Shown here piece by piece: positions 3,642-59,244 of a stretch of 64,000 bases of DNA. Each line of letters begins with the position of its first letter. Position 1 is the stretch's first letter. Where the stretch lies: IMG/VR virus record IMGVR_UViG_3300046692_000385. One strand, 5' to 3'. The translations under genes and the position numbers were made by a program. The DNA comes from a virus (lineage: Duplodnaviria; Heunggongvirae; Uroviricota; Caudoviricetes). A model generated the notes under the pieces. The model ran no database searches. It was given only the letters and a program-made list of their open reading frames with translations, and was not told the origin of the DNA.

Positions 3642-3685
3642 CGTGTTTTCTCCTCGAACGGGTTAAACGCTTAGTCTTGCGTCAA

Positions 3686-3701
3686 TAGTCAGTAATGACT
3701 A
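3686..3701. promoter_or_regulatory. palindromic motif TAGTCAGTAATGACTA
   Basis: Intergenic; ~50 nt upstream of ATG 3641; flanked by GTTAAACGC direct repeats. Confidence 0.5.
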
Positions 3702-3741
3702 ATGACGCAATGTTAAACGCTCAAGCTTGGGCTTGCAATGC

Positions 3742-5173: not shown

Positions 5174-5189
5174 TAATCAGTTTTGACTG
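5174..5189. promoter_or_regulatory. motif TAATCAGTTTTGACTG
   Basis: Intergenic, 27 nt upstream of ATG 5147. Confidence 0.5.
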
Positions 5190-7173: not shown

Positions 7174-7596
7174 TCAGATTTCACGAAAACTTTTGGCTTC
7201 GAGCGCCTTGCCCACGCTCGCAAACCAGTCCTGCGCCTCTTTCGCGGTGTCGAACTCTCGCACCGCCCTCTTGCCGCCAAAGCGGCCCATCCAAACCTGC
7301 TCCGCTCCCACCGTCCACGTGACTGTGGTGAGCGCCGACCCATCGGAAAACGAGCGCTTCATCTCCAGCGGCTCTGTCGGACAGAGCGCCTGCGCCTCGC
7401 TGATCAGGTCGATAAAATCCTTCTTCAAGAGCCCCGAAACCGTCATGAAAAGCACGTCGATTCCGGTGCTGAATTGGTGCGGGGTCAGGCGCCCCTGCGA
7501 CACCGCATACGTGAGCCATTCGAGCGTCTCAAACGCCTTGCGGTCGATCTCTTCCTGGAGAGTGGGTAACTCAGTTCTGACTAATTTAGCCGACAT
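7174..7596 (-). CDS. hypothetical protein (start MSAKLVRTEL)
   Basis: ATG at 7596 with GAGGGAAAA RBS; codons 4-9 contain a second motif copy. Confidence 0.45.
   Translation of the reverse strand: MSAKLVRTELPTLQEEIDRKAFETLEWLTYAVSQGRLTPHQFSTGIDVLFMTVSGLLKKDFIDLISEAQALCPTEPLEMKRSFSDGSALTTVTWTVGAEQVWMGRFGGKRAVREFDTAKEAQDWFASVGKALEAKSFREI
7569..7583. promoter_or_regulatory. motif ACTCAGTTCTGACTA (within codons 4-9 of 7174..7596)
   Basis: Second copy of pair with 7670 site. Confidence 0.4.
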
Positions 7597-7669
7597 GCTG
7601 CTTTTCCCTCTTCTCGTCTCGCGCAACGCTGCGCACAAACTGAATATTACAGATCGAAGCTAGGGAAGA

Positions 7670-7685
7670 CAATCAGTTTTGACTG
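7670..7685. promoter_or_regulatory. motif CAATCAGTTTTGACTG inside 34-bp extended palindrome CTAGGGAA...TTCCCTAG
   Basis: Followed on coding strand by TTGTCT-N17-TAATAT. Confidence 0.5.
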
Positions 7686-7710
7686 TTCCCTAGCTTTTTC
7701 CCAACAGACT

Positions 7711-10079: not shown

Positions 10080-10601
10080 TTAGCGACCCCGACCGTAGCT
10101 GCCGTAACCGCGGCTGCTGGTTGCGATGGAGCTCGTCTTGCCGTAGCCGCCGTAGCCGCTCGTCGTGGCTGTGGGCTTCGGTGCCGCTGCGACGCCAAGC
10201 GGGCGCGACTGGAACGCCGGCGCGGGCTTGGCGACGACTGCCGGCGCCGGTGTCGGTTGCACGTAGGTCTTGTTGATCGTCACGTTCTTGGTGACGTTCG
10301 TCGTGGCGGGCGCGGGGCTGTTCACGTAGTGGTGCTCGACGCGCGAACCGCCACCGCCCATGCCGCTCAGCATGTGCCCCGCCAGCAAGCCAGTGAGGAA
10401 GCCGTCATGTGCCGGTGCCTGGTTCACGATCACGGGCGCTGCTGCGACCGGTGCCGGTGCGTAAGCGGGCGCGGCTGCGACGACTTGCTGCTGCGGTGCG
10501 TAGGCGTAATCCGGGGTGCGACGCGAGCACGAGGCGATGATGCACAGCACGGCGATTCCACCGCCGACGGCGAGCGCGATCTTTTTCTGGTTGGGTGTCA
10601 T
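10080..10601 (-). CDS. putative lipoprotein, Ala/Pro-rich with glycine-zipper C-terminus
   Basis: Start MTPNQKKIALAVGGGIAVLCIIASC (lipobox) at 10601 with GAGGAAC RBS; alternative upstream ATG at 10655 would place a GC hairpin inside the CDS. Confidence 0.5.
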   Translation of the reverse strand: MTPNQKKIALAVGGGIAVLCIIASCSRRTPDYAYAPQQQVVAAAPAYAPAPVAAAPVIVNQAPAHDGFLTGLLAGHMLSGMGGGGSRVEHHYVNSPAPATTNVTKNVTINKTYVQPTPAPAVVAKPAPAFQSRPLGVAAAPKPTATTSGYGGYGKTSSIATSSRGYGSYGRGR

Positions 10602-10625
10602 GGGTTCCTCAAGTGGGATCAAAAC

Positions 10626-10646
10626 GCCCCGATCACCGACCGGGGC
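10626..10646 (-). other. GC-rich hairpin + U-tract in 5' leader (attenuator or terminator-like)
   Basis: GCCCCGG-ucggugau-CGGGGC followed by GUUUUGAU on minus strand, 25 nt downstream of motif+TATAAT. Confidence 0.4.
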
Positions 10647-10672
10647 AAACTGCATTTCAGATACTTATATTA

Positions 10673-10688
10673 TAGTCAGTTTTGACTA
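10673..10688. promoter_or_regulatory. motif TAGTCAGTTTTGACTA fused to TATAAT
   Basis: Minus strand reads AGTCAAAACTGACTATAAT. Confidence 0.55.
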
Positions 10689-10913
10689 ATACTGACCGGC
10701 TGTTTTAGACCGGGTATTGCTGATCCAGTCCGACCACGTTGCTCCACCAGTTCGCCTGCACCTTGACGAGCGCGAGTGCGGCCGGCGTGCCAAGACCCAG
10801 AAGCTTCAGGTAGGCGAACTGCAGCTCGGCGCCGGCACGAATCATCTTGAGGGCCTGCCGGTGGTGAACCGTGTCGGTCCGATCGGGGCTGTCGAGTCGA
10901 TTGGCGGTCATCG

Positions 10914-12189: not shown

Positions 12190-12216
12190 GGAAAACTCCC
12201 CGCACGTGGCGGGGAG
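12190..12216 (-). terminator. rho-independent terminator / 5' leader hairpin after nrdA
   Basis: Perfect 8-bp stem CUCCCCGC-CACGU-GCGGGGAG followed by UUUU on minus strand. Confidence 0.55.
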
Positions 12217-12217
12217 A

Positions 12218-12233
12218 TAGTCAGTTTTGACTG
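12218..12233. promoter_or_regulatory. motif TAGTCAGTTTTGACTG between nrdA stop and hairpin
   Basis: Immediately 5' of 8-bp GC hairpin. Confidence 0.5.
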
Positions 12234-12238
12234 TTTTG

Positions 12239-14509
12239 TTACTGGCAGCTTTCGCAGTTCGGGTTGTCGATGGAGCACAACGACACGCCGATGTCCTGCT
12301 CCATCACATCGACAGCAGCCGGCGCGGCCTGAGCGACCGGTGCTTCTTCCTTCGCCTTCACCGACTCGGTGCGCAGGTAGTAGGTCGTTTTCAGACCGAG
12401 CTTCCACGCCGTCAGATAGATTTCGGAGAGCACCTTGCCCTTCGTGCCAGCCTTGATCCAGATGTTGGTCGACTGCGCCTGGTCGATCCACTTCTGGCGA
12501 CGGGCGGCCGCCTTCACGATCCACATCGGGTCGATTTCGAAGGCGGTCTTGACCTTCTGACCCGGCGTGGCGTAGCGCAGGCTCGGCGCGATCACGAGGA
12601 ACTTGCCGCCCATGTTCTTCTTGCTGTGGAACAGTTCGAAGTTCGGCTCGATGCAGGGCGACACGCCGATGATGTTGCTGATCGTGGCCGTCGGCGCGAT
12701 CGCCATCGTGTTGCTGTTGCGCATGCCGTAGGTCATCACGTGGTGCGTCAACTCGTCCCAGTCATAGAGGCCCGTGCGCGACTGGTCGCGAGCGGTATCG
12801 ATCGGCAAAATCCCCTGACTCCACTTCGAGCCCGCGAACGTGCTGTAGGCACCGCGCTCGATTGCAAGCTCCACCGACGCGCTGATCGCCTCGAACGACA
12901 GGGCTTCGAGCACCAGATCGTTCATCACGAGGCACTCTTCCGACTCCCAGTCGATGTTGGACTGCGCGAGCAGGTCCGACAGGCCCATCAAGCCGAGACC
13001 CACCGGGCGGTGACGCAGGTTGGCCGTCCTGGCGCGATCGGACGGGTAGAAGTTGATGTCGATCACGTTGTCCAGCATGCGCATCGCCGTCTTCACCACG
13101 CGGCTAAAGCGCGCCGGATCGGCGATCGGGTTGACCTTCGCCACGTTCACGCTGCCCAGATTGCACACGAACGTCTCGTCCGGGCCATTGTTCAGGGCGA
13201 TTTCCGTGCAGAGGTTCGAGTTGTGGATGATGCCGACGTGCGACTGCGGGTTGCGCCGGTTCATCTCGTCCTTGAACGTGATCCAGGGGTTGCCCGTCTC
13301 GAACAAGGCGGTCAGCATCTTGCGCCAGAGCTCCACCGCCGGAATCTCACCGACGTAGGCGCCAGCCGCTTCGAGCTCCTCGTAGCGCGCTTTGAAGGCG
13401 TCGCCGTAGAGTTCGTGCAGGTCCGGGTGGCTGTGCGGATCGAAGAAGTGCCACACGCCCTTCTCTTCCACGCGCTGCATGAAGAGGTCGGGAATCCAGT
13501 TGGCCGGGAAAATGTCGTGCGTGCGCTCGTGGTCATCGCCCGTGTTCTTCTTCAGGTCCAGGAACGCCGGCAGGTCCGGGTGCCAGGTCTCCAGATACGG
13601 CGCGAAGCTGCCTTTGCGCTTGCCGCCCTGGTTCACGGCGACGGCCGTGTCGTTGTAGACCTTCAGATACGGCACGACACCGCTCGACTTGCCGTTGGTG
13701 CCCTTGATGTGGCTGTTCTTGCCGCGCACCTTCGTCCAGTCCGTGCCGATGCCGCCGGCGTATTTCGAGAGCAGCGCGCACTCGGTGATGGAGCCGTAGA
13801 TCGAGTCGTAGGGGTGGTCGCCCGGCTCCGCCACGATCTGGTCGCCCACCTGGTTGCCGTAGCAGGACGACATTTGCTGGTGCAGCGTGCCGGAGTTGAA
13901 GAGGGTCGGCGTCGAGGACATGAATTCGAAGCTCGACAGGACGTTGTAGAACTCGATGGCGCGCGCCGTCGGGTTGGCTTCGCGTAGTGCGAGACCCATC
14001 GCCACGCGCATGAAGAAGTGCTGCGGCATCTCCATGATCCGGCCGTCCGGCGTCTCGCGGATGAAGTAGCGATCGGCGAGCGTTTGCAGGCCCAGGTAGT
14101 CGAACTGGTAGTCGCGATCCGGGACGATGGCGGCATCGAGCGCGTCCAGGTCGAAGCGGCCGTCAGCCATGACTGCCGTGAGCTTGAGCGCCCCGATTGC
14201 CTCGCCGATGTAATCGCCCAGACGCGGATAGTCGATCGAGCCGACCGATTCCTTGAAAATCTGCTGCTTCAGGAGGCGCGCGGCGACGAACGTGTAGTCC
14301 GGCGCTTCGAGGCTGATCAGCCCGCCCGCGGCGAGAATGGTCGCGCGGTGGATCTGCTCGGTGCTCATGCCGTCAAACAGCATGTCGCCCACGCTCGTTT
14401 CAAGCTCGGACTGGGACACGTCAAGCCCTTCGCAGGCCCAGGCGACGCACTTCTGGATTTTCTCGATGTTCAGGGCTTCGCGCGATCCGTCGCGCTTGAT
14501 GACTTCCAT
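12239..14509 (-). CDS. nrdA: ribonucleotide reductase class I alpha subunit
   Basis: 756 aa; N-terminal ATP-cone (VIKRDGSREALNIEKI), RNR catalytic core, C-terminal CESCQ cysteine pair. Confidence 0.85.
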   Translation of the reverse strand: MEVIKRDGSREALNIEKIQKCVAWACEGLDVSQSELETSVGDMLFDGMSTEQIHRATILAAGGLISLEAPDYTFVAARLLKQQIFKESVGSIDYPRLGDYIGEAIGALKLTAVMADGRFDLDALDAAIVPDRDYQFDYLGLQTLADRYFIRETPDGRIMEMPQHFFMRVAMGLALREANPTARAIEFYNVLSSFEFMSSTPTLFNSGTLHQQMSSCYGNQVGDQIVAEPGDHPYDSIYGSITECALLSKYAGGIGTDWTKVRGKNSHIKGTNGKSSGVVPYLKVYNDTAVAVNQGGKRKGSFAPYLETWHPDLPAFLDLKKNTGDDHERTHDIFPANWIPDLFMQRVEEKGVWHFFDPHSHPDLHELYGDAFKARYEELEAAGAYVGEIPAVELWRKMLTALFETGNPWITFKDEMNRRNPQSHVGIIHNSNLCTEIALNNGPDETFVCNLGSVNVAKVNPIADPARFSRVVKTAMRMLDNVIDINFYPSDRARTANLRHRPVGLGLMGLSDLLAQSNIDWESEECLVMNDLVLEALSFEAISASVELAIERGAYSTFAGSKWSQGILPIDTARDQSRTGLYDWDELTHHVMTYGMRNSNTMAIAPTATISNIIGVSPCIEPNFELFHSKKNMGGKFLVIAPSLRYATPGQKVKTAFEIDPMWIVKAAARRQKWIDQAQSTNIWIKAGTKGKVLSEIYLTAWKLGLKTTYYLRTESVKAKEEAPVAQAAPAAVDVMEQDIGVSLCSIDNPNCESCQ

Positions 14510-14548: not shown

Positions 14549-14563
14549 AATCAGTTCTGACTG
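14549..14563. promoter_or_regulatory. motif AATCAGTTCTGACTG upstream of nrdA
   Basis: ~40 nt upstream of ATG 14509; TATCAT 3 nt after motif on coding strand. Confidence 0.5.
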
Positions 14564-14584: not shown

Positions 14585-15079
14585 TTACCAGGCGTCGTCG
14601 GTGGTGAGCGGCTTGTCGCGGGAGGTGCCAAGACGCACTGGCTCGCGGAGCAGAGGGCTCCGTTTCCTTTCGGCCGGCATGTAGCGCGCGGCGTCAATTT
14701 CGTGGTCGTGGGTGCCGGGGTGAATCATGTATTCCTTTTCGAATTCCTTCGCTATCACGCCATACCCCTCATCCAGCTTGATCCTGTCCCATTTGACCTT
14801 GCCGGTGCGCTGCTCCCACGCTTCGGCGTCCAGATCCTTCTTGCAGCGGTTGCCGCGATGGTGTGCGTCTTTGCAGCGCAGGCCGCAGTGAACCGTCATT
14901 GATTTTGGCTCTACCTGGTCGTGCATCTCGATGTTCCCGCACCCGCTGCACTTATCAGCCGCCATCAGCATCAAGCGGGCAAAGCCTTCAACCTTGCGCA
15001 CGTTGGGGTCGCGCCAATCGTTGGCGATCTTGATCTGAAGGGGTGCTTCTGCGAGGGTTTTCTTGGCGACGGCGCCCAT
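14585..15079 (-). CDS. zinc-ribbon protein, possibly HNH-like
   Basis: CSGCGN ... HCGLRCKDAHHRGNRCKK Cys/His cluster; ATG at 15079 with GGAGAG RBS. Confidence 0.4.
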   Translation of the reverse strand: MGAVAKKTLAEAPLQIKIANDWRDPNVRKVEGFARLMLMAADKCSGCGNIEMHDQVEPKSMTVHCGLRCKDAHHRGNRCKKDLDAEAWEQRTGKVKWDRIKLDEGYGVIAKEFEKEYMIHPGTHDHEIDAARYMPAERKRSPLLREPVRLGTSRDKPLTTDDAW

Positions 15080-15091
15080 GTTGCTCTCCGG

Positions 15092-15106
15092 GGTCAAAAC
15101 TGACTA
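15092..15106. promoter_or_regulatory. motif copy A (GGTCAAAACTGACTA) of inverted pair
   Basis: Overlaps RBS region of 14585..15079. Confidence 0.5.
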
Positions 15107-15117
15107 TGTGCATATTA

Positions 15118-15133
15118 TAGTCAGTTTTGACTG
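15118..15133. promoter_or_regulatory. motif copy B TAGTCAGTTTTGACTG fused to TATAAT
   Basis: Minus strand CAGTCAAAACTGACTATAATATGCAC then second inverted copy. Confidence 0.55.
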
Positions 15134-20159: not shown

Positions 20160-20175
20160 TAGTCACTTTTGACTC
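20160..20175. promoter_or_regulatory. motif TAGTCACTTTTGACTC abutting sbcD RBS
   Basis: GAGTCAAAAGTGACTAAGGAGAAAGAATG on minus strand. Confidence 0.45.
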
Positions 20176-20626: not shown

Positions 20627-20642
20627 CAGTCAGGGATGACTG
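20627..20642. promoter_or_regulatory. motif CAGTCAGGGATGACTG + extended -10 TGTATAAT
   Basis: 7 nt spacing to TGTATAAT upstream of SleB-like gene. Confidence 0.55.
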
Positions 20643-21687: not shown

Positions 21688-22058
21688 TCGTCACCGTAGG
21701 TGGTGACAAAGGCGACCGGAGCGGATTGCTCGCGGGTAGCCGGCGTGGGCGTCGGCAGGTCATACATGCGGGGGTCGTCGACCTCACAAGCGTTCTCGGC
21801 CGCAGCCATCGTTACCATGAAGTCGGGCGGGTTCGTCGTCCAGTTGGCGAAATCTCTCCGCTGTTTGGCCGACGCGCGCGAGACGAGCCAGCCATCCAGT
21901 TTTCTATTCACCACGTCGTCGAAGAACGCCTGGCGTTTGGTTTTGGCGATGTTGTCGCGCAGCCACAGCAGGTAGGTGGCTTCTTCCGAGAGTATGTCTT
22001 TGATCATGCGGCCCTTGTGCTTGCCAAAGGCCATCACATCACTCAATCCGTTGCTCAT
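21672..22058 (-). CDS. DUF3820-like paralog, C-terminus ..EWGAW
   Basis: AFGKHKGRMIKDILSEEATYLLWLRD; paralog of previous gene. Confidence 0.45.
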   Translation of the reverse strand: MSNGLSDVMAFGKHKGRMIKDILSEEATYLLWLRDNIAKTKRQAFFDDVVNRKLDGWLVSRASAKQRRDFANWTTNPPDFMVTMAAAENACEVDDPRMYDLPTPTPATREQSAPVAFVTTYGDEWGAW

Positions 22059-22405
22059 TCAATCCTCCGCAGGAATATCACTGTGGTTTTCTTCGTGGGT
22101 GTGGCTATGTGCGGCCCGTTGATCTTCTGTAACAGGCTCATCAGCCGCTCCGCGTTGTTCCCATCCGGCGTATCCAGCTCCGTGTGGTTGGTCGCGGCGT
22201 GCTGCGCGCACATTTCAGCCAGGCGCCCCACCTCTACTTTCTCGACAACTGCTTTGCCAAAGACCTCGCGGGCTTTCGAGTCCATGAGGAACACTTCCTC
22301 GCCCTCAGTCAGATGCTTGGCGTAGAAGCCGCCAATTCGAAACGTATTGAACTGCCCTTCGACGCCGACGACCGGCGGAATAAAATCGACTACGCGCGTT
22401 TTCAT
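22055..22405 (-). CDS. hypothetical protein (possible ASCH/PUA-like)
   Basis: 116-aa ORF, weak resemblance only. Confidence 0.35.
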   Translation of the reverse strand: MKTRVVDFIPPVVGVEGQFNTFRIGGFYAKHLTEGEEVFLMDSKAREVFGKAVVEKVEVGRLAEMCAQHAATNHTELDTPDGNNAERLMSLLQKINGPHIATPTKKTTVIFLRRIE

Positions 22406-22438: not shown

Positions 22439-22458
22439 CTTAGTCAGGGCCGACTAAG
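22439..22458. promoter_or_regulatory. variant palindrome CTTAGTC-AGGGCC-GACTAAG plus extra half-site GACTAAG at 22417
   Basis: Same TAGTC-N6-GACTA spacing as main motif. Confidence 0.45.
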
Positions 22459-23552: not shown

Positions 23553-23568
23553 TACTCAATTTTGACTG
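23553..23568. promoter_or_regulatory. motif TACTCAATTTTGACTG forming the whole FEN/recA spacer
   Basis: TAA-CAGTCAAAATTGAGTA-ATG on minus strand. Confidence 0.45.
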
Positions 23569-24477
23569 TTAATGTGTGGGCTTGAAAGCGTGGACCCAGG
23601 CGGAAACGTCTTTCGTGATGCTTCGAAACGCCAGCTCCTCGCAGACTTCGGTGAACTTGTCCACGTCGAGCTTTCCTGTCACCACGCGCATGTCGTTCGG
23701 GCTTGGCTTCTCGACCTTGAGGAGCTGCATGAGCCGGAGGTTACGGGCGAAGATCGCGCGTCCCTCTTTCGATGCGAGATTCGCGTGATGCTTATACTTG
23801 GGAACGAAGTCACCGCTGTCACAGCGCTGCCAAAACTTGCGCACAGAACCGAACTCAGCGATGAATAATGGCGCGCGTGTATCACCGAGCCCGCCGGTCC
23901 CATTGATCACGTCAGACGTGTCGCCCACCAGACACTTCCCTTCGAGGAAGGTGTAAGGGGTCGGGAAGCCCGTCTTGTCCATGAAATTCGCGAGCGTGAT
24001 GCGCTTGTCCTCGTCCCGGTGATCCTGCCACGTGACGTTCGGGCGAACCAGTTGGGCCCAGTCCTCGTCGCCCGTAATCAGTTCGATCACGTTCTCGGGC
24101 TTCTTGGTGAGTTCGGCCACGAAGTAGCCCGCCATGTCGTCGGCTTCGTGCTTCATTGCCGTGACCTGACGCACGCCCAGGTGTTCGAGGGCGGTCGCGA
24201 TATACGGGCGCTGCTTCTTGTAGGACTCGCGCTCGGCTTTCTTCTTCGGGTCCGACTCTCGATTGCTTTTGTAGGGAGGATGAAGATCGAAACGCCACTG
24301 CGCCCTTCCATCCCAGAGCCACAAGATGGTGGCATCCGGGCTGCGCTGGCGAAGCGCCCGAGCGGTGCGGATCGAGCCAAAGACGGCTTGAGTTTCGAGG
24401 TCGCCCGAGCGAAGCTTCGTGCCTCGATGAGCGGCATGCCCAACGGAGTTACCGTCAACGATGATGGTTTTAGACAT
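23569..24477 (-). CDS. 5'-3' exonuclease / flap endonuclease
   Basis: N-terminal PIN-like IIVDGNSVGHAAH...WDG...YKSNRE. Confidence 0.75.
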   Translation of the reverse strand: MSKTIIVDGNSVGHAAHRGTKLRSGDLETQAVFGSIRTARALRQRSPDATILWLWDGRAQWRFDLHPPYKSNRESDPKKKAERESYKKQRPYIATALEHLGVRQVTAMKHEADDMAGYFVAELTKKPENVIELITGDEDWAQLVRPNVTWQDHRDEDKRITLANFMDKTGFPTPYTFLEGKCLVGDTSDVINGTGGLGDTRAPLFIAEFGSVRKFWQRCDSGDFVPKYKHHANLASKEGRAIFARNLRLMQLLKVEKPSPNDMRVVTGKLDVDKFTEVCEELAFRSITKDVSAWVHAFKPTH

Positions 24478-24997
24478 TGATGTGACTCCAAGTCTTGCCG
24501 GTGCGGATTTGACTCACCACGGTAGTTGAAACGCCGTGCCTGGCAGCCAAGTCAATACCGCGCTCGCCTTTTGCAAGACCTTTCTTTATTTCAATCACGA
24601 TCGCCTCAGACGTCGTTGCCATCGGGTGCTGCGTGCCGATGGTGGCGGTGCCATGCTTGCGGCGATCTTCCCAATTGCCCTTCGGCGTATCCCACCGCAG
24701 GTTTTCTACTGCGCAGTTAGACTTGTTGCCGTCCTCGTGGCAGCCCTCCATTCCTTCCGGTCGCGAGCCAACAAACGTCGACAAAACGAGCTTGTGGACG
24801 TTGTGCTTGACCGTCTTGCCGTCGCGGTCCGTCAGCGACACGCGCAGGTATCCTTTGTGGTTCGGCGTCTGGACCATGACACGCGACGAGATCGTATTCC
24901 GACCGGCCTTGTCCTTTCGCTCGACACTGCGGATCACGCCAAGCGTAGAGGCTTGATACAGCCCTTCGTAGCCGGGAATGTCTTTGAAAACTTCCAT
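24470..24997 (-). CDS. HNH homing endonuclease (NUMOD4 + HNH_3)
   Basis: IPGYEGLYQAS (NUMOD4) and HNVHKLV...CHEDGNKSNCAVENLRWDT (HNH). Confidence 0.7.
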   Translation of the reverse strand: MEVFKDIPGYEGLYQASTLGVIRSVERKDKAGRNTISSRVMVQTPNHKGYLRVSLTDRDGKTVKHNVHKLVLSTFVGSRPEGMEGCHEDGNKSNCAVENLRWDTPKGNWEDRRKHGTATIGTQHPMATTSEAIVIEIKKGLAKGERGIDLAARHGVSTTVVSQIRTGKTWSHINV

Positions 24998-25986: not shown

Positions 25987-26002
25987 TAGTCAGGATTGAC
26001 TA
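25987..26002. promoter_or_regulatory. motif TAGTCAGGATTGACTA fused to TATAAT
   Basis: Minus strand TTAGTCAATCCTGACTATAAT. Confidence 0.55.
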
Positions 26003-27272: not shown

Positions 27273-27288
27273 TAGTCAGTTTTGACTG
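27273..27288. promoter_or_regulatory. motif TAGTCAGTTTTGACTG 9 nt after dnaE stop
   Basis: Upstream of 26020..27204. Confidence 0.5.
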
Positions 27289-31448: not shown

Positions 31449-32102
31449 TTACAGTGTGTCGATGATGTGCCGCACTTCCCGGCCGGCAGCGGCGATGTCT
31501 TTGTGGCTGAGTTCCGGCGACACGAGCCGCAGGAACTTGCAGATGAAGGAGATGTTCACGCCCGCGCCGTTGCGACAGGCGACGCCGAGACTGCGGCTGT
31601 GATTCGCGTAGGCTTCGTGCTTGGCGATCTCAGCGAGCAGCGCCGGCGGCGGGCTCACGACCCACTCGACGATCAGGCGAGCGATCGGGCTCAAGCCATC
31701 GGTCAGCTTCCCAATCGCGGCGGCCGCTTCCTGGCGCTGCTCGAGGAACTGCTCCGGGGTCTTGGCGTCGCTTGCGATCCGCTCGACTGCGGCCATGTCC
31801 TCGTCGGTCGTCAGCTCCTCGAAGCTGCGCACGCCGTTCTCGATGCGCTCCTCCTGGACGATTGCGGCGACGCGGCCGATCTTGTTGAAGGCGGCGCGGC
31901 CAAAATACGTGCAAAACTCAAAACCCTGTTCCGGGTCGAACTTGGCGTGTGCTGCGAGAAACGCCTCACGGACGTCGCCAAACACGTCGTCGTAGTCCAG
32001 CGAGGCGCCCATCCCCTGGAGTCGTCCGTAGCACTTGCGTGCTACCTGATGGACGAACCCCAGGTTGCCCGCATAGCACTCTGCTGCGTCAGTGCTATAC
32101 AT
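31449..32102 (-). CDS. sigma-70 family (ECF-like) sigma factor
   Basis: Region-2-like ECYAGNLGFVHQVARKCYG ... YFGRAAFNKIGR and C-terminal HTH LSPIARLIVEWV. Confidence 0.5.
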   Translation of the reverse strand: MYSTDAAECYAGNLGFVHQVARKCYGRLQGMGASLDYDDVFGDVREAFLAAHAKFDPEQGFEFCTYFGRAAFNKIGRVAAIVQEERIENGVRSFEELTTDEDMAAVERIASDAKTPEQFLEQRQEAAAAIGKLTDGLSPIARLIVEWVVSPPPALLAEIAKHEAYANHSRSLGVACRNGAGVNISFICKFLRLVSPELSHKDIAAAGREVRHIIDTL

Positions 32103-33302: not shown

Positions 33303-33391
33303 GGATTCTTCTCCGTTTAGTGGTGAGTTCTTACTGAGTGCAGCAACGTTGCTGCGATATGAGAATGATAATGTCGCTTGTTCGGGAACGC

Positions 33392-33407
33392 TAGTCAGTA
33401 ATGACTG
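33392..33407. promoter_or_regulatory. motif TAGTCAGTAATGACTG inside 38-bp extended palindrome TTCGGGAAC...GTTCCCGAA
   Basis: Upstream of CobS-like gene. Confidence 0.5.
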
Positions 33408-33427
33408 TTCCCGAACAAAAACAACAA

Positions 33428-35432: not shown

Positions 35433-35447
35433 TGTCAATAGTGACTG
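35433..35447. promoter_or_regulatory. variant motif TGTCAATAGTGACTG (operator-position copy)
   Basis: Lies after candidate -10 TAGAAT upstream of CobT-like gene. Confidence 0.4.
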
Positions 35448-35486
35448 AACAAACGTAATTCTAGAGAACGATCTCAGGGTGTGCAA

Positions 35487-35502
35487 CAGTCATTATTGAC
35501 TA
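35487..35502. promoter_or_regulatory. motif CAGTCATTATTGACTA abutting TTGCAC-N17-TAGAAT
   Basis: Candidate sigma-70-like promoter for CobT-like gene. Confidence 0.5.
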
Positions 35503-35559
35503 CCTGCACAGGCAAACAAAAAGCGGCCGAAGCCGCTTTCCGATGCTACGGGCGAGGGA

Positions 35560-35787
35560 CTAGCAGAGGCTGATGAGCGCGGTGGCCCCTGAGTCAGTGC
35601 TGATCAACAACATCAGGCCGAGCGTGGGGTGCAGGACCTTGTTGATCATTGCCGAGCCGAGGTCCATGCGACTGACCTGCGCGCCTTGCTCCATATAGTC
35701 CACGTATTGATCCTGCTCGATCATGCTGCCCAGTTGTGCCATCGAAATTCCCTCTTGCTGCGCGACCGCGCTTTGACCCGTCAACAT
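35560..35787 (-). CDS. hypothetical small protein
   Basis: 75-aa ORF, lower-GC island. Confidence 0.3.
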   Translation of the reverse strand: MLTGQSAVAQQEGISMAQLGSMIEQDQYVDYMEQGAQVSRMDLGSAMINKVLHPTLGLMLLISTDSGATALISLC

Positions 35788-35839
35788 CGTATTGAACTCC
35801 CGAAAGTTTTATTCAGTTTGATTCGCTGCTGAAACATTA

Positions 35840-35855
35840 TAGTCAGTGCTGACTA
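35840..35855. promoter_or_regulatory. perfect-arm motif TAGTCAGTGCTGACTA in divergent regulatory region
   Basis: First of a cluster of AGTCAG / CTGACT half-sites (35840-36065) ending with TGACTAGCTATAAT before HTH gene 36073. Confidence 0.5.
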
Positions 35856-36072
35856 TTTTTCACACAATTTATCGTCTTTTCTTAGCCACGCGGGATTGCG
35901 CGGTCGGTAAAAATGTATAGAATCCAAGACATAGGGAGTGTTCGTCAGTGCTGACACACGGGTATAGACGAGCGCCGTCCCACCAAGTCAGTCAATGATT
36001 ACTATCTGACTAGCTATAATCGATTCGAACAGAGTTACCGGGGCCGTCCCGCAGTCAGATAAGGAGAAAAAC

Positions 36073-36495
36073 ATGACCACGAAGAAGCAGCACAAAGAAG
36101 CCATGAGCGTCGCCGAATACTTCGACGCCCAGGTCAACCTACGCCAGATGACGCTCGCTCAGTTGAGCAAGGACATTGGGGGCGTGCTCAAGCCAAACAT
36201 GTTGTCGATGATTCGAGCGGGCCACACAAAGGTGCCGCTGATTCACGTAGGCCGCATTGCCCGAGCGCTCGGCATCGACCCGATGTTTCTGATGAAGATG
36301 GCGCTGCAGGAATACCAACCGGACAACTGGAAGGCGATTCAGGAAGTGTTCGGCGACCAGCCGGTGCTGACCCGCAATGAGATTGCCCTCATCAACGCGA
36401 TCCGCGAAGCCAACCCGAACAATCCGCGACTCAACGACGCGGACGCCGAAAAGTTCGCGAAGGTGGTGGCAACGTTGCATGGCGATAACGAGTGA
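36073..36495 (+). CDS. XRE-family HTH transcriptional regulator
   Basis: MTLAQLSKDIGGVLKPNMLSMIRAGHTKVP HTH; upstream 230 bp packed with motif half-sites; AAGGAGAAAAAC RBS. Confidence 0.6.
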   Translation: MTTKKQHKEAMSVAEYFDAQVNLRQMTLAQLSKDIGGVLKPNMLSMIRAGHTKVPLIHVGRIARALGIDPMFLMKMALQEYQPDNWKAIQEVFGDQPVLTRNEIALINAIREANPNNPRLNDADAEKFAKVVATLHGDNE

Positions 36496-36529
36496 AGTCG
36501 ATTTCATAGCGGCACGAGCAGCAAACTGG

Positions 36530-36554
36530 AAGCACCCTTCGGGGTGCTTTTTTT
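36530..36554 (+). terminator. rho-independent terminator
   Basis: GCACCC-uucg-GGGUGC followed by UUUUUUU. Confidence 0.6.
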
Positions 36555-36722
36555 ACGCCTGAACATTCAGGGGTTGGGCTCGGGACTGTATATCCATACA
36601 GTGTCGAGCCAGTGAGGAGATTGTAGGATCAAAGACAACGAAAGACAACCACTAGTTGCCATTTTGTTAGTGAATGTTTCAGAGCCTGTGACGAAAATCA
36701 CACAGCCCCAATCTGGCAGAAT

Positions 36723-37400
36723 TTACCTGATCGCCGCCGAATCCTTTAAGCTACGGCGGTCCGACCGTGTAATAACGCCCACAACACGGATCGGTTGGCC
36801 GAACGTGTCCTTGAAAACCTCGAATACTCCCTCTAGGTTTACCCCTATGTCACGCTTGTGTTCACCCTCGAAAAATACACGTGTCAATCCTTCTTGAAGC
36901 ATGCGATTGTAAAGTGCATCAACCACGGGTTTATTCTTTTCTGACAATAGGGCGCGGAAGTTTTCATGCGTTGCTTCCATACCAGGGGGTGCACAGAGGT
37001 GCTCACGTGCTAACGGACTCCAGTGGCAAACACCCGTTAGCAGGTTTTCCTCGATCACCCCGGCGTCTAATAGATTGATGGCAATGTGGAGGCGTCGTTC
37101 GCTGGCGATACAAGCTTCTAAGTAGGCTCGCCTCTTCTGAGCAAAGGCGTCATCAGGCTCTGGCTGCACTGAACGTAGTGCCTCATCCCCGTAACCTAAC
37201 CAGACCCAATTGACGTCCAAGTATTTGGAGACATCTCTCAAGCTCTTGTAATTTATTGCCCCACCCTTCAACCACTTTCCGACAGCTTGCGGAGATACTC
37301 CAATCGCTCTGGACAAAGATGCGGCAGTCTCTTGCTTGGCTTCTAGAAGCGAGCGTAGTCGTTCTGGGAAAGTGGCCTCTTTCTCAGTGGCGTTGGTCAC
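36723..37400 (-). CDS. HTH (XRE/cI-like) regulator with uncharacterised C-terminal domain
   Basis: N-terminal LRSLLEAKQETAASLSRAIGVSPQAVGKWLKGG. Confidence 0.5.
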   Translation of the reverse strand: MTNATEKEATFPERLRSLLEAKQETAASLSRAIGVSPQAVGKWLKGGAINYKSLRDVSKYLDVNWVWLGYGDEALRSVQPEPDDAFAQKRRAYLEACIASERRLHIAINLLDAGVIEENLLTGVCHWSPLAREHLCAPPGMEATHENFRALLSEKNKPVVDALYNRMLQEGLTRVFFEGEHKRDIGVNLEGVFEVFKDTFGQPIRVVGVITRSDRRSLKDSAAIR

Positions 37401-37658
37401 AGCTTCATCCTTTATTGTTCTCTCAACACGTTTGGCTTCACTACTATAGGGATAGTGATATTACTGTAACTAAATACACTTAAAAGCACTTTGGTATAAC
37501 GTGCTTTTTGTTTTTTGTCTGATAGATTCTACCCTCAGTTGGTGCACTGGAAGATCGCACGCTCCCGAGGTTGCCCTCTATATAACAATTCCCATATCTC
37601 GTTAAATCCCGAGCATTATAGAAAGCCAACTATTAGCGCACCCACCTTGCTTGCTACG

Positions 37659-37698
37659 TTGGTATTTTGGTATCTAGATACCTTGGTATCTTGGTATG
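37659..37698. repeat. candidate partition (centromere-like) site: TTGGTAT heptads around 14-bp palindrome GGTATCTAGATACC
   Basis: Four TTGGTAT copies within 40 bp plus a fifth near 37487, ~100 bp upstream of parA in AT-rich spacer. Confidence 0.4.
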
Positions 37699-37787
37699 AA
37701 GCAAGATGGCACACTTGAGAAGTTACTTGAAGACGAGCCATGTATGAATTAGGCTATGGACAAAACTTGTGATGGAGAGGGCAATCT

Positions 37788-38821: not shown

Positions 38822-38844
38822 CCACCCTCCTGCAGACTGCTTTT

Positions 38845-39125
38845 CGGGTTTTGAGATAGGGGTCTATTGGGAGGTTTTCCGGGTTGGATCGGGTTTTGAG
38901 ATAGGGGTCAGGGTAGTTAGAAGATAGTTATAAAGGATTAGGGCCTGTGGAAAGGACTTGTAAGTCACTGAAAACATAAGCCTTTTTTTGCATGCCTTCT
39001 ATCTCAAACCCCGACAATTCCTATCTCAAACCCCGTTAGCGGCTATCTCAAAACCCGAGTTTCTATCCCAAACCCCGAACGAAAAATATCTCAAAACCCG
39101 ATAGTTATGCACATCTCAATCCGAG
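38845..39125. repeat. iteron-type replication origin: 2 inverted + 6 direct copies of TATCTCAAA(A/C)CCCG at ~22-bp spacing
   Basis: Direct copies at 39000, 39022, 39044, 39064, 39087, 39112 (last degenerate); inverted copies at 38845 and 38890; flanked by 16-bp inverted repeat GCCTTTTTTTGCATGCC (38980) / GGCATGCAAAAAAA (39145). Confidence 0.75.
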
Positions 39126-47807: not shown

Positions 47808-47823
47808 TAGTCAGTTTTGACTA
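47808..47823. promoter_or_regulatory. motif TAGTCAGTTTTGACTA fused to TACAAT
   Basis: Minus strand TGACTACAAT. Confidence 0.55.
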
Positions 47824-49101: not shown

Positions 49102-50523
49102 TCACTCGACTCTCAAAATGCCCTTGATGAACGTCATCGTCGCCATGTCCTGTTGAATGAACACGGTGAAACCCGACTCCTGATTTCGTGATGCGGCAAA
49201 GTAGAGCCGCGCCTCGTTCTTCGAGCGCTCCTCGTCGGTGATGTTGATGGAGATCACCAAGTCGGCAATTCGGATGCGGTTAAAGTCTTCCGCCACGTGC
49301 TCGGCTTTCGCCACCGTGGACTTGAAGCCCTCCCGGTTCGTCTGCGTCGCCGACAGCATCGCGAAGCCCTCGACCAGCGCAATTGCGCGCATGTCGGTGT
49401 AGATGGACTTCGAGTTCTCCACCGAGTCGGGCGTGCGGTAGTTCGGCGCCATGATGTCGAGGTAGTCGCACACCACCAGGTCGAAGATGACGCCCTTCGC
49501 CTTGTAGCGATCGATCAATGCCTGCATCGAGTTCGGCGTGAACTTCGAGGACGGGAACTCATGCACCTTCAGCAGACCCGAGCGCGCACGCAGCGCCTTG
49601 ATCTTGCTGTCGGTGTCGTGGATGTTCTTCGTCAGCTCCTTGATCAAATTCTCGGAGATGGACGCATCCAGACGTTTCGCGATAATGTCCGCGCCGAGCT
49701 CCAGCGTCACATACAGGACGTTCTTGCCGACGAGCGAGGCGTTCTTCGCGAAGTTGATCAAGGCCGTCGACTTGCCCGCCTTAGCCCCGCCCATGAACAG
49801 CGTCAGTTCTTTGCGGCCGAAGCCTTTGTGCATCAGCAGTTCATCGAGCTTGGACAAACCGGTAGAAATTCCCTTCGGCGCCGTCTTGCCGCTCGCTTCG
49901 TCGAGGCGTTCTTCCGTGCGCGATTCGATCTGCGCCCAGTAGTCGTAGCCGTCGTCGGCCTCGTTCAGCCCGACGTCATACGCTTCCTTGATCGCCTTCA
50001 GGATCGGATCGAATTTCTTTTTCTCCAGCAGGCTCACCGACGACAGAATCGCCTGGCTCACCGCCTGGTGTCGTGCGAACTCCGCGACCTTCTCGGCCAC
50101 GTAGTCACGGTCGCCCACCGGGTGATCCTTGAGCACCTTGAACGCACGCACCACTTCGGCAGCCGCGTCCTTACGCATGCGTGCGCTCGTTACTGCGTCG
50201 CGAATCAGTGTCGGGAACACCGCGGCTTCAGGCGTGCGCTTGAAGCGCTCGAAATAGCGCAACGTCAGGTCCACTACGCCCGCTTCACCGTCGTTCTCGA
50301 AATACTCGGGCTTGAGCAGGTGCGACGAACGGCGCATGAATTCCGTGTCCCGCAGCGCGAGCGTCGCGATGATGGTCTGGAACTCGTCGTCGAATTCGAA
50401 CTTGTTGGCGATGAACTCTTCCACGCTCTCGGATTCGGCAGCAGGTGCGGCAGCGCCGCTATACGCAGCGCCCACCATCTTTGCGACCGATTCCTCGACG
50501 CTTGCGATGGCGGCTTCGCTCAT
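49102..50523 (-). CDS. dnaB: DnaB-family replicative helicase
   Basis: RecA-like C-terminal domain with Walker A GGAKAGKST; N-terminal DnaB-like domain. Confidence 0.8.
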   Translation of the reverse strand: MSEAAIASVEESVAKMVGAAYSGAAAPAAESESVEEFIANKFEFDDEFQTIIATLALRDTEFMRRSSHLLKPEYFENDGEAGVVDLTLRYFERFKRTPEAAVFPTLIRDAVTSARMRKDAAAEVVRAFKVLKDHPVGDRDYVAEKVAEFARHQAVSQAILSSVSLLEKKKFDPILKAIKEAYDVGLNEADDGYDYWAQIESRTEERLDEASGKTAPKGISTGLSKLDELLMHKGFGRKELTLFMGGAKAGKSTALINFAKNASLVGKNVLYVTLELGADIIAKRLDASISENLIKELTKNIHDTDSKIKALRARSGLLKVHEFPSSKFTPNSMQALIDRYKAKGVIFDLVVCDYLDIMAPNYRTPDSVENSKSIYTDMRAIALVEGFAMLSATQTNREGFKSTVAKAEHVAEDFNRIRIADLVISINITDEERSKNEARLYFAASRNQESGFTVFIQQDMATMTFIKGILRVE

Positions 50524-50954
50524 TGGAAGTGACCTGCTTCCGGGAGGGCGCCGGGTTCTACGATGCGAACCGTCTCCCCTGTGATGAGAGTGGTGGCGCG
50601 CGGCAGCGGTTTGAACTGCTGGATCGCGTGCTTGAACACCACGTGCGTCCAGCCTTTCACTTCGAGCGAAATCGTAAAGGCGTCGGCCGCGCGGATCTTG
50701 CCAACGAGGACCGTTTCGTCGTCACGCATATAGACTTCGATCTCAGCACCGGAATCCTGCAGCGCCTTCAGAAAGGCCTGGTGCCCGGTCGGTGCGTTCT
50801 TCGGCTTCACGCGCGGTGCGGGGCGCTGCGTGGGGCGCTCGTAGCCAGGGCGCGCACCGAGACGCGGGCGGGCGCTCTGAGGTGTGCCCTCGTCGCAGCG
50901 GGCCAGGCGCTGTCCTTCACGAAGTTGTTCGATGCGCAGTTGTTCGGGGGTCAT
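50520..50954 (-). CDS. Hfq-like (Sm fold) protein
   Basis: QAFLKALQDSGAEIEVYMRDDETVLVGKIRAADAFTISLEVKGWTHVVFKHAIQQFKP aligns with Hfq Sm1/Sm2 (..YKHAIST..); start MTPEQL at 50954 with GGAGAG RBS. Confidence 0.5.
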   Translation of the reverse strand: MTPEQLRIEQLREGQRLARCDEGTPQSARPRLGARPGYERPTQRPAPRVKPKNAPTGHQAFLKALQDSGAEIEVYMRDDETVLVGKIRAADAFTISLEVKGWTHVVFKHAIQQFKPLPRATTLITGETVRIVEPGALPEAGHFQ

Positions 50955-51011
50955 GAAGCTCTCCAACACGGGTATGGGTAGAAAATGAATGTCACTCTGA
51001 CGCAAACATTA

Positions 51012-51027
51012 TAGTCAGTTTTGACTA
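51012..51027. promoter_or_regulatory. motif TAGTCAGTTTTGACTA fused to TATAAT (contains stop codon of 51025..51783)
   Basis: Minus strand CATTAGTCAAAACTGACTATAATG; upstream of Hfq-like gene. Confidence 0.55.
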
Positions 51028-52990: not shown

Positions 52991-53005
52991 ACTCAGTTTT
53001 GACTG
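52991..53005. promoter_or_regulatory. motif ACTCAGTTTTGACTG followed by TAATAAT
   Basis: Upstream of phoH. Confidence 0.5.
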
Positions 53006-55160: not shown

Positions 55161-55175
55161 AGTCAGGTTTGACTA
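55161..55175. promoter_or_regulatory. motif AGTCAGGTTTGACTA
   Basis: Upstream of Gly-rich fibre gene. Confidence 0.45.
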
Positions 55176-55619: not shown

Positions 55620-55660
55620 CTAGAGGCTCCTGTTTGAGTGTCTGAAATATACCACGAAAC

Positions 55661-55674
55661 AGTCAGTTTTGACT
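55661..55674. promoter_or_regulatory. motif inside perfect 10-bp-arm palindrome GAAACAGTCA-GTTT-TGACTGTTTC
   Basis: Stop codon of upstream gene lies in first arm; TATATT follows 4 nt after on coding strand. Confidence 0.5.
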
Positions 55675-55677
55675 GTT

Positions 55678-58408: not shown

Positions 58409-58807
58409 TCAGTGCGCCACGAACTTGACGATGCCGACCAGAGCGCCGCTGCCGATGAGACCGCCGAGGATCGTGTAGACCACCTTCAGCGTGCCCGCCA
58501 TGCCCTTCACGGTCGCGACGTGCTCGATGTTGGTTTCGTTGAGCTTCGTGACGGCTTTGTTCGTTTCGACCAGGCGATCTTCGAGTTTCTCAACCCGCAT
58601 CTGAGTCGCCTGATGACGCTCCTCGAGAATGGCGAGTTTGGTGATGGCTGTCGCGATTTGCGAGAGCGCCCCTTTGATTTCGCCGACGTCGCGCTGGACG
58701 TCGTTGACTTGTTGCTCCAATGCGCCAAGATCAACAGGCATGTCATCGTTCCCAATCGTCACTACGAAATTCCCCTTGTCTGTCTCTTGCAAAGGCCAAG
58801 CCGGCAT
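58409..58807 (-). CDS. coiled-coil protein with C-terminal TM anchor (holin/antiholin candidate)
   Basis: C-terminal VVYTILGGLIGSGALVGIV; first gene of lysis cassette after paired motif copies. Confidence 0.4.
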   Translation of the reverse strand: MPAWPLQETDKGNFVVTIGNDDMPVDLGALEQQVNDVQRDVGEIKGALSQIATAITKLAILEERHQATQMRVEKLEDRLVETNKAVTKLNETNIEHVATVKGMAGTLKVVYTILGGLIGSGALVGIVKFVAH

Positions 58808-58811
58808 GATA

Positions 58812-58825
58812 AGTCAAAACTGACT
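58812..58825. promoter_or_regulatory. motif copy A (AGTCAAAACTGACT) of inverted pair
   Basis: Abuts start of lysis-cassette first gene. Confidence 0.5.
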
Positions 58826-58833
58826 GTGGGTAA

Positions 58834-58848
58834 AGTCAGTTTTGACTA
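58834..58848. promoter_or_regulatory. motif copy B AGTCAGTTTTGACTA
   Basis: 8 nt from copy A, opposite orientation. Confidence 0.5.
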
Positions 58849-58872: not shown

Positions 58873-59205
58873 TTACTCGACGATCTCGCCGCCCGCCAGC
58901 ATGTAGCGGCTCGCCTGATACGGCATCGTCACCACCGCGCTCGAATCCCCTTCCGGTTCCGGCTTGATGAGCTCCTGCTCGACGAACGCAAAGCCGTCCT
59001 GGCCGTCTGCCGGGAAGCCTTGAATCGAGACCGGCTGCGGGAACGAGACCGGCTGCTTGCCTGCCTTGAAGGTCTCTGCCGAGACGTAGCTCACGACCGT
59101 GGCTGTGACGAACTTGTTCATGCGATCGAGGCTCACGCTCGACACGTAGTGGTAGGCGGCGACGCCGCCGGTGGTGTCGAGGGTGATCTCTTTTGCGATT
59201 GCCAT
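58873..59205 (-). CDS. hypothetical protein
   Basis: 110 aa, CAGGAG RBS. Confidence 0.4.
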   Translation of the reverse strand: MAIAKEITLDTTGGVAAYHYVSSVSLDRMNKFVTATVVSYVSAETFKAGKQPVSFPQPVSIQGFPADGQDGFAFVEQELIKPEPEGDSSAVVTMPYQASRYMLAGGEIVE

Positions 59206-59228: not shown

Positions 59229-59244
59229 TAGTCAGTTCTGAGTG
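59229..59244. promoter_or_regulatory. variant motif TAGTCAGTTCTGAGTG
   Basis: 22 nt upstream of ATG 59205. Confidence 0.45.

Follow-up and report, generated by a model that had tools for sequence, protein, structure and literature searches.

A 14 base pair (bp) dyad, AGTCA-N4-TGACT, stands at nearly all lytic operons in a 64,000-nucleotide (nt) stretch of viral DNA (IMG/VR record IMGVR_UViG_3300046692_000385; Caudoviricetes). The whole of this stretch was analysed and we refer to it as the window. By sequence comparison, the window is part of a phage-plasmid of the SSU5 type, about 115 kb in length, from a Burkholderiaceae host. There are approximately 30 dyads, most of them single and co-oriented. 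We lean towards the view that the dyad is the operator of a dimeric helix-turn-helix (HTH) protein of the Cro/CI type, most likely encoded by gene 36073-36495, that silences lytic genes. An earlier note on the same DNA had singled out four loci where two copies are found together, and had likened the arrangement to that of a repressor. The four loci are special cases of the genome-wide set.

The dyad mostly reads AGTCAAAACTGACT, in the sense of the minus-strand genes, and the minus strand holds most genes of the window. Allowing up to three mismatches, 34 matches are present where 2.8 are expected. Sites with at most one mismatch, across the ten arm positions, number 31 (0.98 in shuffled sequences) and 18 have exact AGTCA/TGACT arms (0.03 in shuffles). 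Intergenic DNA, only 7.6% of the window, contains 23 of the 26 best copies (p ~4e-23). The direction of the motif is the direction of transcription for 24 of the 26 (p ~1e-5), and none of six gaps in the plasmid module has a site (p ~4e-4). Genes preceded by dyads include those for ribonucleotide reductase (RNR), single-strand-binding protein (SSB), DnaB, PhoH and RecA, together with lysis genes and, in relatives, head genes. Note that the dyad, at 14 bp, is within the size range of two-fold symmetric operators for Cro/CI-type proteins (~14-18 bp). The distribution of sites is close to one per intergenic gap (P = 0.003). If 23 sites are placed at random in the intergenic gaps, two or more fall together in about 5.4 gaps. 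Hence, pairing is not enriched.

All eight copies named by the earlier note, two at each of four loci, are present. In every case they flank a promoter resembling those recognized by sigma70. The features, with positions relative to the predicted transcription start, are as follows (RBS, ribosome-binding site; labels such as L001 denote individual relatives).

15119-15132, minus strand: pair A dyad in the promoter spacer, reading AGTCAAAACTGAC-TATAAT, at -25 to -12; perfect in four relatives.
15114-15119, minus strand: pair A -10 element TATAAT, promoter of gene 14585-15079; TATAAT or TATACT in orthologues from L001, L002, L126 and L133.
15092-15105, plus strand: pair A inverted dyad GGTCAAAACTGACT, at about +3 to +16, with one mismatch; ends 2 nt before the RBS, GGAGAG.
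58834-58847, minus strand: pair B upstream dyad, at -48 to -35, abutting the -35-like TTTACC; perfect in L101 and L130.
58812-58825, plus strand: pair B inverted dyad in the spacer, at -26 to -13, perfect; one mismatch in L101, degenerate in L038 and L130.
58806-58811, minus strand: pair B -10-like TATCAT of the lysis-cassette promoter; same offset in L101 and L130.
35488-35501, minus strand: pair C dyad AGTCAATAATGACT, 2 nt upstream of the -35 element TGCACA (35480-35485).
35433-35446, no strand assigned: pair C dyad TGTCAATAGTGACT, at about +6 to +19 of the CobT-operon promoter, 12 nt after the -10 element TAGAAT (35458-35463).
7671-7684, minus strand: pair D dyad AGTCAAAACTGATT, overlapping the -35 element TTGTCT (7667-7672) of the promoter TTGTCT-17-TAATAT, with its -10 element at 7644-7649.
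7569-7582, minus strand: pair D downstream dyad, at about +56 to +69, in the same orientation as the copy at 7671.

The arrangement of the pairs differs in places from the first description. Opposed orientation, said to be common to all four, applies to pairs A and B. It is barely definable for pair C, because both copies are degenerate (2-3 mismatches) with AT-rich centres, and does not apply to pair D, where the copies are direct repeats on one strand. Pair A does consist of a motif running into TATAAT, followed by an inverted copy. Indeed, the last T of the dyad at 15119-15132 is the first T of the -10 element. However, the gap is 13 nt, not 14, and the second copy adjoins the RBS without overlapping it. 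Pair B is as described; two perfect, inverted copies, 8 nt apart, precede the first lysis gene. The promoter here is TTTACC-17-TATCAT and the -10 element overlaps the ATG at 58807, so the true start of the lysis gene is probably further downstream. At pair C (promoter TGCACA-16-TAGAAT, preceding the CobT-like gene) a copy does follow the -10 element, while the other, reported to abut the -35 element, is slightly removed from it. The second copy of pair D lies inside codons 4-9 of gene 7174-7596, as claimed. With respect to a repressor-like layout, dyads do occupy promoter spacers, or positions just after +1. Conversely, pairing is not above chance and the dyads are mostly single.

Between centres, the copies of pairs A, B, C and D are separated by 27, 22, 55 and 102 bp. 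The spacings in pairs B, C and D therefore approach an integral number of helical turns, while that of pair A is out of phase. Cooperation or looping between paired sites is possible from this geometry. Scanning viral contigs for the exact pair B arrangement identified no example. A scan of the same kind with the bare 14-mer gave mostly noise among the matches listed. Searching the literature with a 12-mer of the motif found only unrelated human and mammalian papers; these were not inspected and the matches are probably primer sequences.

The four pairs are supported by conservation in relatives with 72-85% nucleotide identity. At orthologous positions, dyads are 88% identical, compared to 74% for the flanking 30 nt on either side. 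All four pairs are retained in the closest relatives although spacers and flanks diverge. For instance, pair A is intact in L001 and L002 although its 8-nt spacer differs; only half of the inverted dyad remains in L133 and L126. Pairs B, C and D are retained across L101, L005, L003, L006 and L069. Within these pairs, the downstream dyad of pair C is conserved in L143, L144 and L005, and the arms of the downstream pair D dyad persist in L003, L006 and L069 despite their coding position. In more distant relatives, the sense-oriented copy stays perfect and the inverted second copy decays. Centres of the dyads there are variable or symmetric, so orientation is less marked or undefined. Note that orientation counts in relatives are approximate, since the gene caller used, based on GC content at third codon positions, gave spurious open reading frames (ORFs) on the opposite strand.

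The gene beneath pair A (14585-15079, minus strand) encodes a Cys-rich protein of 164 amino acids (aa). In relatives (L001 1972-2472, L002 ~790-935), it is only 31-39% identical or has been replaced by a shorter body, yet the promoter, the two dyads and some 7 codons at the start of the gene are conserved. The locus resembles a hot spot for gene exchange, beneath a promoter that is tightly controlled. The protein could not be placed in a family and a sequence search of solved structures gave nothing useful.

In relatives, dyads also accompany head and tail genes. In L017, a dyad is found directly before TTGACA-17-TACATT, upstream of the terminase gene, and TTGACA-17-AATACT, upstream of the portal gene. 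Further dyads precede the scaffold gene and follow the major head gene. In L074, dyads are found around the tape-measure region. Since replication, head, tail and lysis genes are all accompanied, the dyad marks all lytic modules rather than one temporal class.

Cognate dyads are apparent at greater distances. A complete circular plasmid of Cupriavidus metallidurans, syntenic with the window, has GTCAGTCA-N4-TGACTGAC in intergenic gaps. Within 36.7 kb of Acinetobacter baumannii ZW85p2, AGTAAGCGCTTACT is found 14 times and in several cases runs directly into ATAAT. In SSU5, dyads similar to AGTAAGTACTTACT are located among tail genes and in the gap between CobT and CobS. In Cyrano, an E. coli phage-plasmid, GGTAAGCACTTACC separates a TGTAATAT hexamer from the putative repressor gene. 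Both Acinetobacter and SSU5 have a motif with complete symmetry. In distant relatives, the two arms shift in concert from the half-site AGTCA to AGTAA, which would be expected for recognition by a dimer.

Which protein might bind the dyad? Lytic genes and a plus-strand HTH gene diverge from a switch region (35433-36003) that has at least five dyads over divergent promoters, kept in L143 and L144. In addition to pair C, the features in and next to this region are:

35841-35854, minus strand: switch dyad AGTCAGCACTGACT followed by TATAAT, promoter of the 75-aa gene 35560-35787.
35943-35956, no strand assigned: switch dyad CGTCAGTGCTGACA, downstream of a -10 element, TGTATAGAAT, facing the HTH gene.
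35990-36003, no strand assigned: degenerate switch dyad beside AGCTATAAT.
36073-36495, plus strand: candidate operator-binding protein, 140 aa, XRE/HTH_3 family; heads the plasmid module, divergent from the lytic genes.
36723-37400, minus strand: second HTH protein, 225 aa, DicA-like; weaker candidate, in a low-GC island.

Both in the switch region and in distant relatives, the arms are constant and the centres vary, a signature of a dimer in contact with two half-sites. The 75-aa product could not be assigned to a family. The 140-aa protein belongs to Pfam family HTH_3. Its predicted model, with a confidence score (pLDDT) above 90 for residues 13-80, has one HTH domain and a short helical tail. 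The best compact structural match is 434 Cro (2cro; template modelling score 0.82, root-mean-square deviation 1.5 A). Others are the DNA-binding domains of the 434 and P22 (c2) repressors, SinR, C.AhdI and C.BclI. There is no S24 peptidase domain, and a sequence search of solved structures was not informative. Homologues, with 30-38% identity, are encoded by 600 plasmids of ~106-118 kb (305 from Klebsiella, 155 from Acinetobacter, 101 from Escherichia, and others) and 19 phages. In the three relatives inspected (Cupriavidus, Acinetobacter and Cyrano) the homologue is syntenic, and divergent from a small gene and a CobT-like gene. The Cyrano homologue, CYRAN_45, is annotated as a 'putative repressor'. 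A study of strain LF82 includes CYRAN_45 in its list of prophage genes with expression during lysogeny (10x the local background; PMC9928086).

The 225-aa protein is in an island (36500-37700) with a GC content of ~51%, compared to ~60%. It has almost no plasmid homologues, and the only ones are annotated as PAS-domain proteins of Burkholderia multivorans. While conserved in close relatives, it is absent from the syntenic position of the Cupriavidus relative. Because of its synteny and distribution, we prefer the 140-aa protein, most likely the best candidate to bind the dyad; conservation of the recognition helix did not separate the two. In six sequences compared, there is a hint that the recognition helix changes along with the half-site (...SMI... 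versus ...SFI/SLI...).

The position of dyads relative to promoters was compared for 106 distinct copies, from the window and its relatives. The sequence TANNNT is strongly enriched at offset 13, occurring in 27 of the 106; at this offset, 24 copies match TATAAT at five or more of the six positions and 16 exactly. At offset 36, the count is 14 and, beyond offsets 13-15, no other offset reached 8. Hexamers at offset 36 hold their position in orthologues despite differences in the intervening sequence. Two classes can be described. In class I, comprising eight window dyads, the dyad abuts the -10 element, fills the promoter spacer (-25 to -12) and shares its last T with the -10 element. In class II, six window dyads are just upstream of the -35 element (about -50 to -35), with -10 elements at offsets of 35-38 and the dyad centre between -40.5 and -43.5 (about -41.5). 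The site at 47809 fits both classes. Around ten window dyads have no recognizable -10 element; among these, 20161 and 23554 touch an RBS or ATG, and 12219 is between a stop codon and a terminator. Sites other than those already listed are:

3687-3700, minus strand: single dyad in the longer palindrome GCGTCA..TGACGC; consensus dyad in L003.
5175-5188, minus strand: single dyad (motif match), -10 element not found.
10674-10687, minus strand: class I dyad (motif match) with TATAAT, then an intrinsic terminator, then an RBS.
12219-12232, minus strand: dyad after the RNR stop codon and before an intrinsic terminator, lacking a -10 element.
14549-14562, minus strand: dyad with TATCAT, upstream of the RNR large subunit gene.
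20161-20174, minus strand: dyad abutting the RBS of an SbcD-like gene, leaving no room for a promoter.
20628-20641, minus strand: dyad with exact arms and a variant centre.
22442-22455, minus strand: dyad with a variant centre, upstream of 22055-22405.
23554-23567, minus strand: dyad 1 nt upstream of the ATG of a RecA-like gene.
25988-26001, minus strand: dyad with TATAAT, upstream of the gp32-like SSB gene.
27274-27287, minus strand: class II dyad, -10 element TATCAT 22 nt downstream.
33393-33406, minus strand: dyad in the CobT-CobS gap, TATCAT 22 nt downstream; same gap occupied in ZW85p2 and SSU5.
47809-47822, minus strand: dyad with TACAAT at offsets 13 and 36.
51013-51026, minus strand: dyad with TATAAT, upstream of Hfq-like, DnaB and primase genes.
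52991-53004, minus strand: dyad with AATAAT, upstream of PhoH.
55161-55174, minus strand: single dyad, -10 element not found.
55661-55674, minus strand: single perfect dyad in the palindrome GAAAC..GTTTC, TATATT at offset 23.
59230-59243, minus strand: single dyad upstream of 58873-59205.

Class I promoters have no -35 element at 16-18 bp. Upstream of the dyads at 10674, 15119, 25988, 47809 and 51013, an element similar to TTGCC occurs 8-10 nt before the dyad. This is the sole -35-like element of class I and is 21-23 bp from TATAAT. Between positions -18 and -7, GCC is present at 15 of 32 class I sites and 32 of 227 others. Such a spacer is too long for sigma70 and recalls promoters of the MerR type.

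Some dyads are embedded in longer palindromes. These are at 7660-7695 (GCTAGGGAA..TTCCCTAGC), 33380-33416 (GTTCGGGAAC..GTTCCCGAAC), 3679-3708 (GCGTCA..TGACGC) and 55656-55679 (GAAAC..GTTTC), and are partly kept in relatives. Elsewhere, the order of stop codon, dyad, intrinsic terminator and RBS recurs, at 12205-12240, 10600-10690 and 2090-2130 of L017. The respective locations are after the RNR large subunit gene, upstream of 10080-10601 and after the major head gene of the relative. This reverses the usual order, in which a promoter follows the terminator. A consistent association with terminators was not found, since hairpins are upstream of some dyads and downstream of others. Antisense promoters, using TTGACT within the dyad, were ruled out because no -10 element is correctly spaced. 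Boxes for the host factors IHF, FNR/CRP, LexA and sigma54 do not fit.

We next consider how the dyads might function. On our preferred reading, the 140-aa protein would sit on the ~30 window dyads in the plasmid-prophage state, silencing replication, recombination, nucleotide metabolism and lysis. The dyads before head and tail genes, in relatives, would extend the same scheme. Where no promoter is recognizable, the bound protein could be a roadblock. Paired loci would be reinforced operators, with a second dyad over the start point, spacer or early transcribed region tightening repression. Repression is favoured because dyads fill the spacer or cover +3 to +16, or +6 to +19, and a site just after the start cannot activate. 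Since dyads accompany consensus promoters in L017, no activator should be needed there. The cluster of dyads in the switch region, together with expression of the homologue in a lysogen, fits a lysogeny repressor.

Several observations weigh against this interpretation. A symmetric dimer does not require the fixed, co-oriented AAAC centre. The lack of a properly spaced -35 element, as in class I, is the usual mark of activator-dependent promoters, and the centre of class II dyads is the position from which lambda CI and CRP/FNR activate. For two dyads, located after a stop codon and ahead of an intrinsic terminator, a roadblock would seem superfluous. Furthermore, the element encodes a phage sigma factor, and the recognition helix of the 225-aa HTH protein is also invariant among close relatives.

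The points on promoter geometry would be explained if the protein were an activator, or a dual regulator similar to lambda CI or the C proteins of restriction-modification systems, that activates class I and class II promoters and represses only where a second copy covers the start. We regard this as unlikely but a serious rival; it has the -10 boxes at offset 13 in its favour and, at offset 36, a dyad centre of -41.5. The classes are 23 bp apart, and this resembles the geometry of OR2 and OR3 with respect to lambda PRM. The junction of dyad and ATAAT is kept as far away as Acinetobacter, and C.AhdI and C.BclI are among the fold matches. Conversely, activation fits poorly with dyads beside TTGACA-17-TACATT promoters, variation of class II offsets from 35 to 38, and many perfect dyads without a -10 element. 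No temporal class is singled out, replication and head, tail or lysis genes being preceded alike, and the homologue is listed as expressed in the lysogen.

That the motif is itself a promoter, or part of one, read by the sigma-70/ECF-like (extracytoplasmic function) factor encoded at 31449-32102, seems improbable. Such a factor is present in the element, and the motif's high information content, roughly one copy per operon, alignment with transcription and absence from plasmid-maintenance genes would all suit a promoter. However, the arms are palindromic, with complete symmetry of the motif in Acinetobacter and SSU5, and it is the centres that vary while the arms are fixed. Perfect inverted copies would fire into upstream genes, copies abutting an RBS or ATG leave no leader, and sigma70-type -10 boxes occur at set offsets from the dyad. 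Slightly more improbable still is a role in RNA. Here, a 5-bp hairpin with an AAAC loop would be a signal for processing, stability or protein binding (for example, by a phage Hfq-like protein) and inverted pairs would form long hairpins masking translation starts. The copies are co-oriented and transcribed, some being between a stop codon and terminator, and a phage Hfq-domain protein is encoded. The hairpins formed by pairs have energies of -19.8 and -21.7 kcal/mol (z-scores -4.9 and -7.9), while an individual dyad folds only weakly (-4 to -5.5 kcal/mol). Within the lineage, base pairs are broken by individual substitutions with no compensating change. Pair B is upstream of its start point, class I dyads are in a non-transcribed spacer, sites cluster in the divergent switch region, and nothing in the window attained the gathering score of any Rfam family. 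Finally, identical 14-mers spread over a genome could be a functionless repeat, arising as chance palindromes or remnants of a small mobile element. This is hardly credible given their extreme enrichment, intergenic location at about one per gap, conservation at orthologous positions despite diverging flanks, and cognates in distant relatives.

A broader version of repression by the 140-aa protein can be put forward, tentatively and with considerable doubt. One Cro/CI-type protein, with its dispersed 14-bp dyad, might constitute the master regulon of an SSU5-type supergroup spanning Burkholderiaceae, Acinetobacter, Salmonella, E. coli and Klebsiella. In the lineage of the window, the fixed asymmetric centre may have turned the operator into an orientation-dependent roadblock as well. 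This would be similar to a stoperator yet dimeric, having arisen independently of that in mycobacteriophages, and might act positively from -41.5.

Among known systems, the nearest parallels are the operator network of P1 C1 and the stoperators of mycobacteriophage L5. In phage P1, one repressor, C1, has many operators scattered genome-wide, each beside a lytic promoter (PMC8198154). Both P1 and the element studied here are phage-plasmids with dispersed, promoter-linked operators; the latter has ParA, a TrfA-like protein, putative iterons, ParE and a complete circular plasmid relative. The operators of P1, some of them in pairs, are 17-mers without symmetry, and C1 is not known to belong to the XRE family. 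In contrast, the window site is a 14-bp dyad and its candidate binder has a fold like 434 Cro. The stoperators of L5, and other cluster A phages, number more than 20 and are in promoters and short intergenic spaces, their orientation strikingly correlated with the direction of transcription and needed for blocking elongation; each is a 13-mer without symmetry, recognized by a monomer that has two DNA-binding domains, an HTH and a 'stoperator' domain (PMC9283540). The window similarly has more than 20 dispersed sites, co-oriented in 24 of 26 cases, and relatives also have sites between head and tail genes. The transcription-oriented AAAC centre, in particular, recalls L5. However, the arms here are a perfect palindrome, only the 4-bp centre is asymmetric and the candidate has one HTH domain. 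Given the 434-type dimer and dyad, the system is not a member of the P1 C1 or L5 families.

The switches of lambda, 434 and P22 involve the same DNA-binding fold and several operators over divergent promoters, between repressor and lytic genes. The 434 operator dyad is 14 bp, the same as in the window, and adjacent sites are 22-23 bp apart, as in pair B. Lambdoid operators differ in being confined to one or two switch regions, while the window operator is repeated at nearly every lytic operon. The 140-aa candidate also differs in having no S24 peptidase domain. For restriction-modification C proteins, which are small XRE dimers, paired dyads around the promoter mediate both activation and repression. 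The likeness is in the fold matches noted above. Unlike the dispersed window dyads, C-boxes occur at one locus per system, and their half-site order, GACT..AGTC, is different. The role of Lpa in late promoters of P1 has been described (PMC8198154). Class I promoters resemble these in part, with a consensus -10 element, no -35 element and an inverted repeat just upstream of the -10 element. In P1, the repeat is centred near -22. Here, the class I dyad is centred at -18.5, and dyads are also located at +1, beside good -35 boxes and ahead of genes for replication, which are not late. In the parts that were scanned, no protein like Lpa was identified.

We found no description in the searchable literature of this system, or of how SSU5-type phage-plasmids stay silent. 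These elements are common in Klebsiella, E. coli, Salmonella and Acinetobacter. Hence, while not surprising in principle, the arrangement appears to span a large and clinically relevant group, and is directly testable. If the dyad is a repressor operator, the lysogeny regulon of the whole group could be read from sequence and immunity groups predicted from pairs of half-site and recognition helix. Induction and spread could be tested by simple reporter and binding assays in tractable systems, for example SSU5 or Cyrano. Silencing of a whole genome through numerous scattered repressor sites, oriented with transcription, would then have a second, independent example.

Assignment of the element to the SSU5 type, and to a Burkholderiaceae host, is based on relatives of its DnaE, viral and Paraburkholderia contigs with 72-85% identity, and a homologue of the 140-aa HTH protein encoded by Caballeronia. 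The nearest annotated relatives, at ~44% DnaE identity, are Rhizobium RHEph10-like phages, Pseudomonas phage nickie and Salmonella phage SSU5. The closer ones are viral contigs of 110-117 kb and one contig from a Paraburkholderia metagenome-assembled genome. A 115,577-bp contig contains the same sequence as the window. In a phage collection searched for near-identical DNA, the sole match was 41 bp within RNR. Genes of the window encode RNR, an SbcCD-like nuclease, RecA, a 5'-3' exonuclease, the gp32-like SSB and DNA polymerase III alpha. Others encode CobS/CobT-like proteins, DnaB, primase, ligase, PhoH, endolysin and a tail fibre. A plus-strand block, at 36-41 kb, has genes for the HTH protein, ParA, a small protein resembling the ribbon-helix-helix type and a TrfA-like initiator, together with the 22-bp iteron-like repeats.

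Between the par genes and the trfA-like gene, at 38844-39101, there are five direct copies of this ~22-bp repeat (core TATCTCAAACCCCGA) and two inverted copies; these are probably iterons or a centromere. Near the plasmid module, 42160-42507 (plus strand) encodes a ParE-family toxin, and presumably an antitoxin gene is close by. The sigma-like gene, 31449-32102 (minus strand), is inside the CobT/CobS operon and encodes a divergent protein of 217 aa. Matches to Pfam Sigma70_r2 (E 8e-5) and TIGR02937 (E 2.5e-8) are both below curated cut-offs; in Acinetobacter plasmid ZW85p2, the gene at the syntenic position carries a sigma factor annotation. The Hfq-domain protein, encoded at 50520-51005 (minus strand) directly upstream of DnaB, has an N-terminal extension of ~75 aa; its syntenic counterpart in the Cupriavidus plasmid is annotated as RNA chaperone Hfq. 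A gene similar to those for homing endonucleases, with NUMOD4 and HNH domains, is at 24470-24997 (minus strand), between the 5'-3' exonuclease and gp32-like genes. Lastly, an ORF of 587 aa at 53338-55101 (minus strand), with an unusually high GC content at codon position 2 and no PHROG match, adjoins genes resembling those for the fibre and adaptor proteins gp77 and gp80 of podophage GP4.

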